Shown one piece after another: positions 6,357 through 12,104 of a DNA stretch of 64,000 nt (positions within the stretch are counted from its first letter, which is position 1; every line of letters begins with the position of its first letter). The notes under the pieces were generated by a model that saw only the letters and a program-made list of their open reading frames with translations, had not been told where the DNA came from and ran no database searches. This DNA is from an uncultured Spirochaetota bacterium (GTDB lineage Bacteria > Spirochaetota > Spirochaetia > SZUA-6 > CAVTHK01). The position numbers and the translations under genes are program-made. Location: assembly GCA_963734495.1 (NCBI GenBank), contig CAVTHK010000009.1, positions 160,001 to 224,000 of the forward strand, written 5' to 3'.

Positions 6357-6620
6357 TCAAGTGGCCTCAAGCAAGCCGCTGACCGCCAGGTCGTAGTTCG
6401 GCTTCGTCCCGTCCCACAAAGGCATGTTGACGTCAGGGCCAAGGTCGAGGCCGCGCTCATAGGCCCATTCGCGCATCCAGGTGACGATGTCGTCCACCCG
6501 CTCCTGCGGCGGATTCTGCGCAAGCGACCTGCCGGAGGGCGAGTGGAAGAGGAGCTCGCCATCTGCGCCGGTGCTGATGGTCCAGCCCCCCTCATGGACC
6601 AGGCGATGATGGAAGGTGCA
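6357..6620 (-). pseudogene. 3' fragment of DUF222/HNH endonuclease gene, separated by the RIT insertion
   Basis: Reverse strand from 6620 reads CTFHHRLVHEGGWTISTGADGELLFHSPSG...LLEAT-stop (stop 6357-6359). It continues ...NLALLC at 10022 in frame. Confidence 0.9.
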
Positions 6621-6648
6621 TTATGCCGACCGCCGGATTATGCCGACT
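6618..6648. repeat. RIT left terminal inverted repeat
   Basis: GCATTATGCCGACCGCCGGATTATGCCGACT is the exact reverse complement of 9965-9995 and contains two TTATGCCG motifs. Confidence 0.95.
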
Positions 6649-6714
6649 TCGGTGGTCCACGGCCTATCGGGTCGCGGTGAAGAACGGTTTTCTCGGCTTG
6701 GGCTGGCGGCATAA

Positions 6715-7710
6715 TCAAAGCGTGCTGAGAAAGGCCAGCAGGCGGTCAGGAGGTCGGTAACGGCGGGCGGCCGCGAGGCTGGGAGCTGTCTTCGCCAGGG
6801 CCCGTTCCTTCGCGGCGAGGTCGACTGCGAGATAGACGTGGGTGGTTTCCACCGACTCGTGTCCGAGCCACAGGGCGATGACCGCGGAATCGATGCCGGC
6901 CTCGAGCATCCGAACCGCTCTGGTGTGCCGAAGAACGTGGGGGGAGACGCGTTTGTTGGCGAGCGAGGGACAGGAGGCGGCTGCGGCCTTGCTGGCATGC
7001 CTGTGCAGCCGCTTTTCGACGGCGTCGCGGCTCATGAAACCGCCACGCTGGCTTGGGAAGAGCGGATCCGTGGGCTGAGCGGGCTGTGCCCTGAGCCAGG
7101 CTCGCAGGACGCCGACGGTCTCTTTCCTCAGCGGGGTCATTCGCTCCTTCCGCCCCTTGCCCATGCAACGGACGTGGGCCCCGGGCCCTTCGAGTTCCAA
7201 GTCGGCCTGCGTCAGCCGAGTGATCTCGGAGACACGCAGTCCGGTCTGCTCGGCGAGTAGGAGCAGAGCGTGGTCGCGGCGGCCGATCCAGCTGGAGGTG
7301 TCCGGTGCCGCGAGCAAGGCATTGATCTCCTGCTGGGTGAGGAACTCGACTGTCTTTCGGTCGAACCGCTTCTGGGGGATCGCCAGCACGCGCTGGATCA
7401 ATGCGCTGTGCTCGGGAACCTCGGTGGCCGCGTAGTGGAAGAAGGCGCGGATAGCCGACAGTCGCGCGTTGCGCGAGCGGGGGGAGTTGTTCCGCTCGGT
7501 CCCCAAGGAGTCGAGGAAGGCGGTGACCATTGGGGCTTCGAGGTCGGCGAGCAGGAGGTCTGAGGGTTTTTTCCCCAGCTCTTTCTCCGCGAATCGGAGC
7601 AGCAGCCGGAAGGTGTCGCGGTAGGCGGCGATGGTGTTCGGGCTGGCTTGGCGTTGCTTGCCGAGCCGCACCAGGAAGAATGCCTCGAGAAGGGGTGCGA
7701 GGGCGCTCAT
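6715..7710 (-). CDS. Tyrosine recombinase (RIT gene C)
   Basis: Catalytic R (GLRVSE), K (GKGRKER), HVLRH, LGH and Y (THVY), with an N-terminal SAM-like domain (SPNTIAAYRDTFRLLL). Confidence 0.95.
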   Translation of the reverse strand: MSALAPLLEAFFLVRLGKQRQASPNTIAAYRDTFRLLLRFAEKELGKKPSDLLLADLEAPMVTAFLDSLGTERNNSPRSRNARLSAIRAFFHYAATEVPEHSALIQRVLAIPQKRFDRKTVEFLTQQEINALLAAPDTSSWIGRRDHALLLLAEQTGLRVSEITRLTQADLELEGPGAHVRCMGKGRKERMTPLRKETVGVLRAWLRAQPAQPTDPLFPSQRGGFMSRDAVEKRLHRHASKAAAASCPSLANKRVSPHVLRHTRAVRMLEAGIDSAVIALWLGHESVETTHVYLAVDLAAKERALAKTAPSLAAARRYRPPDRLLAFLSTL

Positions 7711-8630
7711 GTGTGCACCTCATGGGAGCGCCGGCAGCGCTCGCTGACCAAGGCGAGAAGCTCCGGAACCGCGGTCAGATACCAGTAGGTCATGGTCGGG
7801 TTGAGGTGGCCCAGGTAGGTCGACAGCAGTGGCAGCCTTGATTCCACGTCGACACCGCAGCGATACCAGCCGATGAGCGTGCGGACGGCGAAGGTGTGGC
7901 GGAGGTCGTGGATGCGCGGGCGGCGTGGGCTGCGGTTGGCGAGACCCGCCCGGTCGATGAGGCGATGGAAGCGCAAATGGACGTTGGCGTAGATGAGCGG
8001 CTTGCCGGCTCGCGAGAGGAACAGACGCGAGGAGTACTGGATGGGCAGGAGGCGGTCGCGATTGCGGGCATAACGGCCGAGGGCCTCGACGCTCGACGGG
8101 TGAAGCGGGATCTCGCGGGACTTGCCGAACTTTGACCCACGCACGACGAGCAGGCCTCGGTCGTGGTCGAGGTCACGGCGGTCGAGCCTTATGGCCTCGC
8201 CCACACGCATGCCTGTGACGGCGAGCAGGGCGAGAAGGGTCGCGTCGGTAAAGGCGCTGTGGTGATCCCGCTGTGAGCGCGCCGCCTCAAGGAGCCTGTC
8301 GATGTCGTCCTTAGAGTAGATGTAGGGCCTCAGGCGCCGGGATGCGGGCGGCAGAAGATGATGAGGCGGGACCTCGGTGCGGGGGTCAAAGGACTGTGCG
8401 TAAAGAGCGAACTGGCGGATGATGCCTAAGCGTGTGGCCCACCACCGGGGCGATGCCGCGGCCGGTTTGGTAGCCCACTGGAGGGCGAGCTTCGTCGTGA
8501 TCGAGTTGCTGCCGGCAGCGAGCACTGAGTTGACGAACTCGTGCAAGCGCCTGCCGACGTGCTGGAGCTTGTACCCCGTGGCGTGACGGGTGGCGAGGTA
8601 GTCGTCGAGGATCTGGTGGAGGTTGCTCAT
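7707..8630 (-). CDS. Tyrosine recombinase (RIT gene B)
   Basis: GMRVGEA, SKFGKSR, HDLRHTFAV, LSTYLGH and TYWYL. ATGA overlaps with both neighbours. Confidence 0.95.
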   Translation of the reverse strand: MSNLHQILDDYLATRHATGYKLQHVGRRLHEFVNSVLAAGSNSITTKLALQWATKPAAASPRWWATRLGIIRQFALYAQSFDPRTEVPPHHLLPPASRRLRPYIYSKDDIDRLLEAARSQRDHHSAFTDATLLALLAVTGMRVGEAIRLDRRDLDHDRGLLVVRGSKFGKSREIPLHPSSVEALGRYARNRDRLLPIQYSSRLFLSRAGKPLIYANVHLRFHRLIDRAGLANRSPRRPRIHDLRHTFAVRTLIGWYRCGVDVESRLPLLSTYLGHLNPTMTYWYLTAVPELLALVSERCRRSHEVHT

Positions 8631-9838
8631 GCCGCACCTCCGGGCCACGGCTGCGCGAGCTCGTGCAACCGGCAGTAGTCCACCTTGGCGTAGATCGCCG
8701 TGGTCGCGTGGTGGCGGTGACGGAGGGCCTGCGCGATCTCATCAAGGGTCGCTCCCCGGCGCAGCATCGTGGTGGCGGCGCTGTGCCGCAGCCGGTGAGC
8801 GCCGACCGGTGGCAGCTGGACGCGCTTGCAGGCGTCCCGGACGATAGAGGTAACAGCGCTGCTGCCGAGTGGGCCGTGGGGGACGTGATGGCCCAGGAAC
8901 AAGGAGCGCCAGCTCGTCTTCCTGCGCCGCCGCAGATAGGAGGCGAGCGCGCTGCCCACCTCCTCCAGAAGCGGCATGCGGTCCTCCCGCCCGCCTTTGC
9001 CACGGATGAGCAGGATGCCCTCCCGCCAGTTCACGTCGTCGAGGCTCAGAGACGCGACCTCCTTCGCTCGCAGTCCCATACGAGCCAGGAGCAAGAGGAC
9101 CGCGTAGTCGCGGCGGCCGAGGGTGGAGCGCCTGTCGCAGCTGTCGACGATGGCGTTTACTTGCTCGGGAGCGAGGTACTTCGGCAGTGAAGCCATGCGG
9201 CTGCCGGCGACCTTGGGGACGGCGCCCCTGAGGTCCATGGTGATGTCGCCCCGTAGCTGCAGATAGCGCAGGAATGAGCGAAGGCCGGTGAGCGTCGCCC
9301 GGGTCTGGTCGACGTTAGATCCCCGTGAACTGTCGAGGACGTAGCGCTTGACCGTAGCGCCGTCGAGCGAGGACAGATCCAACTCGCCAGACGGTGAGGT
9401 CTTCACCAGCAACTGCCGGGCTTCGGCGCGGTACTTCCGAGCCACACCAGGGGTGAGCCCCTGATCGTGGATCAGCGAGCCCTCGTACTCGCTCAACAGC
9501 TGCTCGAGTGGCGTCAGTGGGGAGAGTGGCGCGGCCGGGGAAGGCTCGGGTATCAGCCCCGCTCCGGCAAGGAAGCGGAGAACCGCAACGAGGCTTCCCC
9601 GGCTCAGGAACTGGGTGTAGCCTCTATCTCGCCTCGCGCAAAGGAACGAATCGACCTGCTCATCGGACAGGTCCTGTAGCCCGAGACTCTGCTCCTCGAG
9701 CCATCGGCTCAGATGACTCGCCACTCCCAGCAGATTCCTGCACGAGAGGATCGCGTAGCCCTGTCGAAGCAGGTCTGACCTGAGCTCTCGGACGTGATGC
9801 GCCAGGGGTCCGGAAAACCGGACGGTAGGAAACCGCAT
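8627..9838 (-). CDS. Tyrosine recombinase (RIT gene A)
   Basis: GLRAKEV, GKGG, HRLRHSAAT, LRH and TAIYAKVD. GGAGG RBS precedes ATG at 9838. Confidence 0.95.
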   Translation of the reverse strand: MRFPTVRFSGPLAHHVRELRSDLLRQGYAILSCRNLLGVASHLSRWLEEQSLGLQDLSDEQVDSFLCARRDRGYTQFLSRGSLVAVLRFLAGAGLIPEPSPAAPLSPLTPLEQLLSEYEGSLIHDQGLTPGVARKYRAEARQLLVKTSPSGELDLSSLDGATVKRYVLDSSRGSNVDQTRATLTGLRSFLRYLQLRGDITMDLRGAVPKVAGSRMASLPKYLAPEQVNAIVDSCDRRSTLGRRDYAVLLLLARMGLRAKEVASLSLDDVNWREGILLIRGKGGREDRMPLLEEVGSALASYLRRRRKTSWRSLFLGHHVPHGPLGSSAVTSIVRDACKRVQLPPVGAHRLRHSAATTMLRRGATLDEIAQALRHRHHATTAIYAKVDYCRLHELAQPWPGGAA

Positions 9839-9964
9839 CGTGACCTCCCTTCCCAACCAGTGGTCGGGACGAGGTCACTATGTGCCAAGCAGCCCGGATT
9901 ATGCCGCCAAGGGGATCGAGAAAAACCCTATCCGCGGCAGGAAAACCGCAGACTCGACCGAGTG

Positions 9965-9995
9965 AGTCGGCATAATCCGGCGGTCGGCATAATGC
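9965..9995. repeat. RIT right terminal inverted repeat
   Basis: AGTCGGCATAATCCGGCGGTCGGCATAATGC is the reverse complement of 6618-6648. Confidence 0.95.
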
Positions 9996-9996
9996 G

Positions 9997-10020
9997 CGTT
10001 ATGCCGACATCGGCATAACG
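9997..10020. repeat. Palindrome of recombinase-binding motifs outside the right IR
   Basis: CGTTATGCCGA-CA-TCGGCATAACG, with 11-bp arms. Confidence 0.9.
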
Positions 10021-11019
10021 TGCACAGCAATGCAAGGTTATCGAGCCTGGTCTCCCCGCCGTGCAGCCAGTGCTTTACGTGGTGCCCGTGCAGGAAGCTG
10101 GTGTGAGTGCACCCGGGAAAGGCGCAGCCGCGGTCCCGCAGCATCAAGGCCCGGCGGAGGGCGGGGGGAATGCTGCGGGTGCGGCGGCCGATGTTCAGAC
10201 TCTCCCCGTCCCCACCCACGGCCACCAGACCACAGTCACAGGCGACCCGCCGCAACGTCTCCGCGGAAACGCGCGTGCCATCATCCAGCGTAGCCGCCCA
10301 CTCTCCGTCCGCACCCAGCACCTCCTGCTCGAGATGAACCATGACCTGGAAGCGCTCCCCGCCGGTTCCCTTTACCGGATGGCCGGTCAGGAACGACTCG
10401 GCGAGCTCGACCGCGCCATCGGCCCGGGATGGCCAGCGCGTTTCCGAGGAAACGCCGGCGGCCTGCGCCGCCTGCTCGGGCTGCTCGGCCTGCACCTCCC
10501 GGGCGCGCTCGACGGCGCGCAGGATCAGGTCCGCCTCGTCGGGCTCCAGCACCAGCTCCAGCTTGACCATTCCCCCCGGCAACACCCGCCGATATACCGA
10601 CCGCTCCTCTGGCGCCGCCGCCGTCTCCTCAGCCGCCGCGGCCGCCGATAGCCCCGGCACATCCGCTCGAGCTGCGCCGCGGTTGCCACCAGCGCCATTT
10701 CCAGCAGCCTGCCCTCGTTCTCAGGTGTTGCCACTCGGGTGAGCGCGCGGACCTTGGCGTAGGAAAGGCTGGCCGAGCGGAATGCCTCGTCTATCGCGGG
10801 CAGCTTGCCGAGGGCGCGCGCGACCCGCACCTTCTCGCGTGCCGTCGCCGGATCCAGCCCGACTCGCCAGGCCAGCCAGTGGGCGCAGGAAACGGCGCCC
10901 TGGTCGCACCAGCCGCCGGCGTCGTCGAACTGCCTGATGCACTCGAGGAGCCTGTGAGTGGCGGCGTCGAGGTGCGCCGACAGGCTGGCGATCTCCTGAG
11001 CGAGCTGGTCTGTGGCCAT
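10020..11019 (-). pseudogene. DUF222/HNH endonuclease gene, 5' part (interrupted by RIT; extra frameshift near 10645)
   Basis: N-terminus (SCAHWLAWRVGL...AREKVRVARAL...LSYAKVRALTRVATPENE) is typical of DUF222 proteins. C-terminus has GRRTRSIPPALRRALMLRDRGCAFPGC..HGHHVKHWLHGGETRLDNLALLC. Confidence 0.9.
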
Positions 11020-11025
11020 GACTAT

Positions 11026-11054
11026 ACTATACATATGTATGGCTTAACATGCAA
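11026..11054 (-). promoter_or_regulatory. Promoter of HNH gene with overlapping palindrome
   Basis: Minus strand: TTGCAT, 17-bp spacer, TATAGT, 6 nt, then ATG (leaderless-like). Palindrome ATACATATGTAT at 11029-11040. Confidence 0.6.
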
Positions 11055-11461: not shown

Positions 11462-11674
11462 ATGAAGGAGCATATGAGTATTACCATGGACAGGTCCACC
11501 GCTGATCGTCTACGTCGATACTCGCGTCGCGAGCGGCGGTCCGTGAGCCAGGTAATCCAGATCGCCCTCGAGCGGTTCCTGGACGAACGCGTCCCCGCGG
11601 TCGACCGGATCGTCACGACTCCGGGCAGCTTCCGTGGTCAGTTCTCGCGCGAGGAGACCTATGGCACGCGCTGA
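11462..11674 (+). CDS. Ribbon-helix-helix antitoxin
   Basis: MSITMD...LRRYSRRERRSVSQVIQIALERFL is an RHH pattern. Ends FSREETY and overlaps the PIN gene. Confidence 0.8.
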   Translation: MKEHMSITMDRSTADRLRRYSRRERRSVSQVIQIALERFLDERVPAVDRIVTTPGSFRGQFSREETYGTR

Positions 11675-12104
11675 GGGCCCAGTCCTGATCGACACGAACG
11701 TCCTGATCTACGCGACCCTCGAGAACGATCCGCGGTTCGAGCGCTCGAGGCAGCTCCTCGCTTCGCGGGACGGAGAGAAGTTCGTCTCGGTCCAGAACCT
11801 GGCCGAGATGTATCCGAACCTGACCGGTCCGAGGATGGCGAGCCCGGACACGCCCGTTGTGGCGCGGGCCAAGATCGAGTCCATCGCTGCGCTGCCGACG
11901 CTTCAGGTGCTGCCCCTGACAGGGGATGTTCAGAGCCTCGCGATGGAGCTGTGCGAGAAGCACAACCTGACCCGCCAGCGCTACTACGACGCTCAGCTCG
12001 TAGCGACGATGGTGGCGCACGGCATCAGGACGATCGTGACGGAGAACGCGCGCGATTTCGAAGATATGGAGGAAATCGAGGTCGTCGACCCGTTCCGCTC
12101 CTGA
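11661..12104 (+). CDS. PIN-domain (VapC) toxin
   Basis: VLIDTNVLIYA, QNLAE, YDAQLVATM and IVTENARDF. Confidence 0.9.
   Translation: MARAEGPVLIDTNVLIYATLENDPRFERSRQLLASRDGEKFVSVQNLAEMYPNLTGPRMASPDTPVVARAKIESIAALPTLQVLPLTGDVQSLAMELCEKHNLTRQRYYDAQLVATMVAHGIRTIVTENARDFEDMEEIEVVDPFRS

Follow-up and report, generated by a model that had tools for sequence, protein, structure and literature searches.

Recombinase in trio (RIT) elements are widespread, and one of them raises the question of why such an element should lie within the active-site motif of a nuclease gene. It was found in a 64,000-nt stretch of an uncultured Spirochaetota genome labeled G000 (positions 160,001 to 224,000 of contig CAVTHK010000009.1, assembly GCA_963734495.1), here called the window. 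The insert is an intact RIT of ~3.4 kb with the gene order ritA-ritB-ritC, and it splits a DUF222/HNH gene. A second copy with permuted ends in the same genome, a set of nine HNH genes broken at one codon, and the end structures of related elements make it likely, with considerable confidence, that the element entered as a circle bearing two mirror-image crossover sites and integrated site-specifically into the conserved motif-coding DNA of another selfish gene.

Three overlapping recombinase genes on one strand, their catalytic residues, flanking inverted repeats, a length of ~3.5 kb, and near-identical genomic copies identify the insert as a RIT. This agrees with the original prediction made for this DNA, according to which an intact RIT splits an HNH nuclease within its motif: all three proteins match PF00589, the 27-nt repeats are perfect, and the upstream coding part ends in ...DNLALLC at position 10025. 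The R-K-H-R-H-Y residues reported there were also found in all three recombinases, being invariant across the RitA/RitB/RitC alignment (R263, K287, H354, R357, H380, and Y389 in RitA numbering). The same alignment revealed a ~100-amino-acid N-terminal extension in RitA. RitC aligned to XerD (1a0p) over residues 12 to 296 with the catalytic residues in register, given the residue numbers that we take to be those of the XerD active site. Each 27-nt inverted repeat consists of two direct copies of the 10-bp motif TTATGCCGAC spaced by 7 bp, and one inverted copy of the motif sits 50 to 70 bp further inward on each side. At the right end, an extra 20-bp palindrome is enclosed by two hexamers, a feature that had been left uninterpreted. 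The unit comprises 3,383 nt shared with the second copy plus 26 nt of palindrome and hexamer. The coordinates of these features are listed in Table 1.

The element cuts the HNH gene after the Cys codon of the HNH motif. Its flanking hexamers are identical at five of six positions, with GTGCA duplicated at 6616-6620 and 10020-10024 as predicted; GGTGCA and CGTGCA both give a Thr codon. The C-terminal part begins TFHHRLVHEGGW, with a reading frame that crosses the 6615-6620 hexamer and ends at the 6357 stop. Pfam scores of 40.5 and 33.6 bits for DUF222 (PF02720; cut-off, 24.4 bits) and 28.4 bits for HNH (PF01844; cut-off, 21.4 bits) confirmed the DUF222-then-HNH architecture. Scripted removal of positions 6621 to 10024 gave an open frame of 299 codons from 10660 to 6357 with zero internal stops. 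The expectation that excision would restore the protein thus holds for this portion and fails for the full-length product, because a separate frameshift, suspected near 10645, is indeed present in the assembly and leaves the frame open only from 10660 onward. There, the open reading frames (ORFs) at 10525-11034 and 9899-10660 overlap in differing frames. The gene in the window is therefore not intact, being split by the RIT and, as assembled, also frameshifted. No contig from the same organism spanned 10486-10807 in four low-depth public runs compared as Logan contigs. The two RIT copies of G000 show zero indel differences over 3.4 kb, which argues that the assembly is not grossly indel-prone, and the frameshift near 10649 is probably real rather than an assembly error.

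Four HNH paralogs are present in G000: two are intact (~426 amino acids), one (C7) has its own frameshift, and the fourth is the window copy, which is 82 to 84% identical to the intact paralogs. The frameshift in C7 (G000:C7:419948-421224) falls between residues 187 and 196 in intact-paralog numbering, and at the codon targeted by RITs this copy has TGCACC with no insertion. No larger repeat unit was found around the paralogs, as no other part of the genome matches the 300 nt to the left or the right of the window copy. In the sister genome G001, the locus is syntenic with other genes in place of the HNH gene, and it offers no true empty site. With four paralogs in G000 and none at the orthologous G001 locus, the DUF222/HNH gene is a multicopy, dispensable selfish gene. 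Beyond it, at window positions 11462-12104, lie a small ORF and a 156-amino-acid ORF that by eye resemble a ribbon-helix-helix antitoxin and a PIN-domain (VapC-like) toxin; similar pairs occur at the syntenic place in G001.

Table 1. Features of the RIT element and the split DUF222/HNH gene in the window
Feature	Position	Strand	Details
HNH C-terminal piece (FHHRLVHEGGW..., stop 6357-6359)	6357-6614	−	Paralog tblastn residues 340-424, 71% identity
Junction hexamer GGTGCA (gene sense TGCACC, Cys-Thr codons)	6615-6620		HNH C-terminal side
ritC-proximal terminal inverted repeat	6621-6647		27 nt
Inner end-motif copy, opposite orientation	6707-6714		Directly past ritC stop
ritC	6715-7710	−	331-aa tyrosine recombinase; PF00589, 1.3e-34; ATGA overlap with ritB stop
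ritB	7707-8630	−	307-aa tyrosine recombinase; PF00589, 3.7e-25; ATGA overlap with ritA stop
ritA	8627-9856	−	409-aa tyrosine recombinase; PF00589, 9e-32
Inner end-motif copy, opposite orientation	9899-9906		Upstream of ritA; same layout in most RIT loci
ritA-proximal terminal inverted repeat	9966-9992		27/27 complementary to 6621-6647
Inner hexamer TGCGCG	9993-9998		Between inverted repeat and palindrome; intact, putative second crossover site
20-bp palindrome	9999-10018		Two outward-facing copies of the 10-bp end motif; at opposite end in copy 2 (C1:35569-35588)
Junction hexamer CGTGCA (gene sense TGCACG)	10019-10024		HNH N-terminal side; also intact inside copy 2
DUF222 C-half and HNH motif up to Cys (..DNLALLC)	10025-10648	−	DUF222 139-306/306; HNH 8-40/47; paralog match stops at residue 340
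Frameshift, directly past CRGYR codons	10645-10652 (about 10649)	−	1 nt missing versus three paralogs (DNA comparison with C13, C2, and C7)
DUF222/HNH N-terminal piece, first frame (start MYSIVM...)	10650-11034	−	ORF 10525-11034 = Pfam DUF222 3-125/306; paralog tblastn residues 1-127

A RitB-based scan, with one genome per species, yielded 451 relatives. The best 80 of the 451 were kept as survey loci and, together with the element of genome G056 and the two G000 copies, made up a full survey of 83 copies; copies sharing one genome (L045/L046, L086/L087, and the G000 pair) do not count as independent. In 77 of the 80 loci, the best matches to the window proteins followed one another as A-B-C on a single strand. 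In L049 and L057, RitA and RitB lie 1.5 kb and 2.8 kb apart without overlap, other DNA having inserted within these RITs.

Insertion into the HNH motif proved recurrent. In G056, a member of the same order, a RIT 83% identical to that of the window splits a DUF222/HNH gene between ...LVMLC and TFHHHLVH, with TGCACC on both sides and its rit genes in the opposite orientation. Searches by tblastn with an intact paralog broke off exactly at residue 340 in L037, L038, L040, and L041, and Pfam or direct reading added L042, L043, and L063, of which L042 is labeled "nohit" and L063 "unres" in the RitB tree. Counting the window, nine elements lie at the same Cys codon, and the HNH profile is cut at 37 to 40 of 47 in every one. 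The hosts of those among the 80 loci are annotated as Myxococcota, Actinomycetota, and Pseudomonadota. Read in gene sense, the junction hexamers are TGC followed by the next codon (TGCACC, TGCACG, TGCTCG, TGCGAG, TGCGCC, TGCAAA, TGCAGC, TGCTCA, and TGCCAT). The rit genes run in the sense of the HNH gene in four copies and antisense in five, and in each of the seven copies with a visible HNH N-terminal side the palindrome stands there, whereas none of the nine has it on the C-terminal side. Fixed polarity combined with free gene orientation is what would be predicted of two mirror-image sites with an asymmetric hexamer.

In a quick RitB tree, the HNH-splitting elements, both G000 copies, and a five-member clade targeting IS256-type genes form one group of 15 (support 87). 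Nine of its 10 non-IS256 members are in HNH genes, the 10th being the second G000 copy. The suggestion that RITs prefer DUF222/HNH genes as targets is thereby strongly supported by comparative evidence, as these nine insertions share one Cys codon across different phyla and in both orientations. Copies at unrelated targets had been named as evidence that would count against the idea; one was found among the 10 non-IS256 members, and the other nine are in HNH genes. The inner hexamer of HNH-clade RITs also reads TGCNNN and is often unlike that of the current target (e.g., L041 and L043), as though it kept the trace of an earlier HNH site. In G000, the 14-mer around the site occurs once, and the 9-mer CTGTGCACC occurs 26 times.

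The second copy, on contig C1 of G000, differs from the window element at a single position in 3,383 nt, in a synonymous Lys codon of ritC (window position 7570), and this near identity suggests that the element is active or was so recently. It interrupts an Na+/H+ exchanger gene (Na_H_Exchanger, PF00999). The two copies differ in how their ends are arranged. Outward from the ritA-side repeat, the window has TGCGCG, the 20-bp palindrome, CGTGCA, and then the HNH flank. Copy 2 passes from this repeat and TGCGCG directly into its flank, and the palindrome with CGTGCA precedes the ritC-side repeat at the other end. These 26 nt thus belong to the ritA end of the window element and to the ritC end of copy 2. 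In three relatives with an uninterrupted exchanger, the sequence spanning the site is ...EV(M/L)R-x-K...; therefore, the implied target hexamer equals the TGCGCG of the element, which is at once the inner hexamer of the window and the right-junction hexamer of copy 2. On the plus strand of C1, the site reads CTT, TGCGCG, CATCAC and has a loose resemblance to the target in HNH genes (CTN, TGCNNN, one codon, CAYCAY).

Both arrangements were recovered outside the assembly. At most 0.27 of the sampled words were present in any public run. Among the four runs compared, a Logan contig from X1 follows the window as far as 9998 and from there continues into the right flank of copy 2, and one from X4 covers 9907-10057 without difference. 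These contigs confirm both junctions, and the runs may be the source sample.

These observations are best accommodated if the element moves as a ~3.4-kb circle whose junction is a near-perfect palindrome of ~86 bp. Its order would be the ritC-side repeat, a 6-bp crossover hexamer, the 20-bp palindrome, another hexamer facing the opposite way, and finally the ritA-side repeat, giving two mirror-image core sites that each consist of two inverted 10-bp motifs around 6 bp. Integration would then be conservative site-specific recombination of one circle hexamer with the target hexamer, leaving a hexamer on both sides and the palindrome on one end. The choice between the two circle sites would set the orientation of the rit genes. 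The HNH insertion would have opened the circle at one of its hexamers, and the exchanger insertion at the other. Members of this clade would recognize the DNA coding for the N-L-x-x-L-C / x-H-H part of the HNH motif and cross over within the Cys codon and the next codon (TGCNNN), inactivating the nuclease. The HNH site may serve as a conserved, harmless landing pad because the DUF222/HNH gene is multicopy, dispensable, and selfish. The circle as the transposition intermediate in G000, the hexamer as the region of strand exchange, whatever roles the three proteins may have in it, and the selective reason for the target are all deduced from comparison of sequences.

End structure could be tallied in 49 of the 83 copies, those with alignable inverted repeats. 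The palindrome was at the ritA end in 20, at the ritC end in 13, at both ends in 1, and undetected in 15. The undetected set includes two copies cut by contig ends, three with an imperfect palindrome visible by eye, and one assembly with inverted flanks. Two elements in one Schaalia genome, L045 and L046, also differ in which end carries the palindrome. In this chromosome of Schaalia naturae, the two lie ~300 kb apart and have hybrid flanks, the N-terminal part of one copy of a transposase gene being joined through the element to the C-terminal portion of the other, and the reverse; this arrangement points to recombination between two RITs, probably a chromosomal inversion.

Metagenome contigs were pattern scanned for the full predicted junction, which gave 17 loci. 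Contig L132 (3,527 nt) reads ritB'-ritC-junction-ritA-ritB' with the full junction and an exact 99-nt terminal direct repeat, the pattern that a closed circle of ~3.43 kb could produce. Most of the 17 junction contigs were rejected as evidence of circles, since they end within ~100 nt of the junction and are partial sequences. Contig L133 (4,218 nt) is a perfect palindrome of 2,023 nt on each side of the junction (ritB-ritA, junction, ritA-ritB), which would be a fold-back by the assembler or a real head-to-head dimer; it looks like the former and was regarded as an artifact. Complete repeat-hexamer-palindrome-hexamer-repeat junctions were also found in L125, L135, and L136, with no rit genes within the 1.5 to 1.9 kb examined. 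These could be solo end structures or nonautonomous elements.

The genes split by other RITs were assigned by Pfam scans of the ORF pieces abutting the junctions (133 + 120 pieces). Besides the nine DUF222/HNH copies, these were ArdC, in its MPTase-PolyVal domain (8 copies, cut at 52 to 55/126); IS256-type Transposase_mut (6 copies, cut at 255 to 258/379); IstB_IS21 (6 copies, 5 by Pfam and 1 by eye, cut at 159 to 160/238); IS66 transposase (2 copies, cut at ~270/284); and DDE_5 (2 copies, with no fixed cut position). A serine recombinase, an rve integrase, a reverse transcriptase (below the Pfam cut-off), and the Na+/H+ exchanger were each interrupted once. Overall, 36 of the 37 assigned genes belong to other mobile or selfish elements. 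Target labels on the RitB tree required 27 changes, compared with 44.3 for shuffled labels, and none of 200 shuffles matched this, suggesting that the type of target goes with the RitB clade. The IS256 group forms a single clade (support 97), the IstB group is one clade plus one unresolved row (support 99), and the ArdC rows fall within a 20-row clade (support 100). No Pfam family was found at the junction in any of the 12 copies with readable ends in the beta-/gammaproteobacterial clade. At two other loci, the flanks do not pair: in L059 (Rhodococcus opacus plasmid pHG202) both are N-terminal halves of IstB genes, and in L039 (a Ktedonobacterales metagenome-assembled genome) both are the same C-terminal transposase half in inverted orientation, reflecting either rearrangement between copies or assembly artifact.

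Extended to the whole family, the evidence tips slightly in favor of RITs being site-specific parasites of selfish elements, with one motif per RitB clade reached through a ~86-bp two-site palindromic circle junction. The candidate motifs are the HNH motif, the QRCxVHxxRN region of IS256-type transposases, the Walker-B region of IstB, the metallopeptidase domain of ArdC, and a site in the IS66 transposase.

Several findings weigh against integration of a two-site circle at clade-specific motifs. The left junction of copy 2 (C1:35560-35568) reads TGCGGCG, with one G more than a clean hexamer exchange and the exchanger frame would have, and this base may be either a genuine footprint or a fault of the assembly. 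Targeting is not absolute, as copy 2 sits in an unrelated gene. The two junction hexamers of an element sometimes differ (TGCACG/TGCACC in the window and TGCACG/TGCTCG in L038); derivation of exact strand-exchange positions from such mismatched pairs was attempted and did not succeed. Eight copies have no palindrome at either end, among them L047, a clean split of an IS256-type transposase gene, so that a two-site circle would not be the sole form and a one-site form must exist. Contig L132 might be a tandem array rather than a circle. At the window locus, the four low-depth Logan runs showed neither an empty site nor a circle or excision joint, a result that is uninformative either way. Ends were unresolved in 30 of the 83 copies, no Pfam family was found at the junction in 16 of the 83, and the RitB tree is a quick version on which the target-clustering figures rest.

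The explanation that fares best against integration at selfish motifs shares its mechanism. RITs could be kept as hyperparasites that benefit the host by disabling the catalytic genes of mobile elements, with selection acting through the host. The mobile or selfish nature of 36 of the 37 assignable genes, each cut at a fixed profile position (DDE_5 apart), fits this idea, but the same pattern is predicted if selfish genes are simply safe harbors. In addition, RITs within the genes of insertion sequences, plasmids, or integrative and conjugative elements (ICEs) are carried along by them, to the benefit of the RIT itself. Host benefit as the driving force is thus improbable.

A coincidental hit by an element with little preference beyond a short hexamer match is less probable again and can be regarded as very unlikely. 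It draws on copy 2, whose unrelated target has an inferred hexamer equal to the inner hexamer of the element, and on the beta-/gammaproteobacterial clade with no Pfam family at its readable junctions. Against it stand the nine copies that break HNH genes at one codon in different genomes and phyla, the single occurrence of the 14-mer against 26 of the 9-mer, and the clustering of target type by RitB clade. Nor do the nine insertions read as vertical copies of one event, given that they lie in opposite orientations, carry different hexamers, and share only 46 to 79% RitB identity.

The reversible off-switch put forward in the original prediction, by which excision and reinsertion would toggle the HNH nuclease as do elements interrupting sigK or nif genes, found little in its favor and is scarcely credible, given a target gene that is frameshifted, is one of four paralogs of which two are intact and unoccupied (and C7 also has an unoccupied site), and is missing from the G001 locus. 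The recombinases look functional, excision at the hexamers rebuilds codons exactly with Thr in both products, and the split gene is otherwise uninterrupted in G056 and L038. Exact restoration, however, follows from conservative site-specific recombination and is general to tyrosine-recombinase elements rather than special to this locus. Sister RIT clades likewise split genes for transposases, IstB, and ArdC, and a copy of this very element lies in an exchanger gene; interruption would therefore be a property of the element and not regulation of the HNH gene. The lack of empty-site or circle forms also speaks against a switch, although low-depth contigs are weak data on this point.

Integration of a two-site circle can be set beside what is recorded for other RITs. 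The archetype is from Cupriavidus metallidurans CH34 (Van Houdt 2009, 2012, PMC3414803 for the latter; Ricker 2013), and the window element shares with CH34-type RITs the order and overlaps of the trio, a length of ~3.5 kb, flanking inverted repeats, and multiple identical copies. The 2012 paper describes gene order, overlaps, identical copies, "sequence variation at the ends," and a palindrome near the ends, and it places single RITs inside a Tn6049-type transposase gene and the radC gene of an ICE. It states that the end features do not fit known binding-site schemes, and it gives no target rule (PMC3414803). Here, in contrast, the differences between ends are attributed to circular permutation about a pair of mirror crossover sites, and targets are assigned to particular clades. 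Nielsen et al. 2017 (PMC5737581) observed raised coverage of RITs in the mobilome, could not find circular junctions, and proposed hairpin forms. RitA, RitB, and RitC were classified by Smyshlyaev et al. 2021 (PMC8138268). In a 2023 study (PMC10214605), RIT target specificity, the empty site, and movement are given as "not tested," and RIT transposition is said not to have been reproduced. The HNH target, clade-specific targets, and a permuted two-site junction were not found in the open literature searched, and Ricker 2013 or supplements may hold part of them.

The tyrosine-recombinase transposons described in PMC10214605 move via a circle and carry a 6-bp flank in the circle junction to the next site. 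The inner TGCNNN hexamer of HNH-clade RITs may likewise be a carried flank. Unlike those transposons, RITs encode three genuine recombinases, lack a TnpC/Srap/Tfp-type partner, and have symmetric inverted-repeat ends plus an extra palindrome that gives two mirror sites. Core sites of the Xer/dif and Cre/loxP systems consist of two inverted motifs around a 6- to 8-bp asymmetric spacer that sets alignment and orientation. The RIT core site shares this layout, and RitC aligns with XerD over nearly its full length. RIT ends differ in adding a second, direct motif 7 bp inward and a third, inverted copy 50 to 70 bp further; moreover, their junction comprises two core sites back to back, and three different recombinases are encoded.

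The prophage-like element phiRv1, which uses a serine integrase, likewise integrates at a multicopy DUF222/HNH repeat gene, whereas the window RIT is a 3.4-kb recombinase-only unit. In Mycobacterium tuberculosis, Rv1587c, a "partial REP13E12 repeat protein," adjoins the phiRv1 integrase (PMC1931498), and REP13E12 has been equated with HNH/DUF222 (PMC10589994). The position of phiRv1 beside a split REP13E12 gene is therefore a precedent for a landing-pad role of the DUF222/HNH family.

For the HNH gene itself, the result is ordinary, one selfish gene having been knocked out by another selfish element. If the family-wide reading is true, it would account for the long-noted "variable ends" of RITs, for insertion in either orientation, and for an unused-site hexamer that records an earlier target. 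The window, its second permuted copy, and their relatives also offer a model for the bench, with a core site in which two 10-bp motifs enclose a 6-bp hexamer, a predicted junction for the circle, and a short natural target at the HNH Cys codon. Should nesting in the catalytic motifs of mobile elements hold, it would aid the annotation of split transposase, IstB, ArdC, and HNH pseudogenes and would add an extra parasite-on-parasite layer to bacterial mobilomes.

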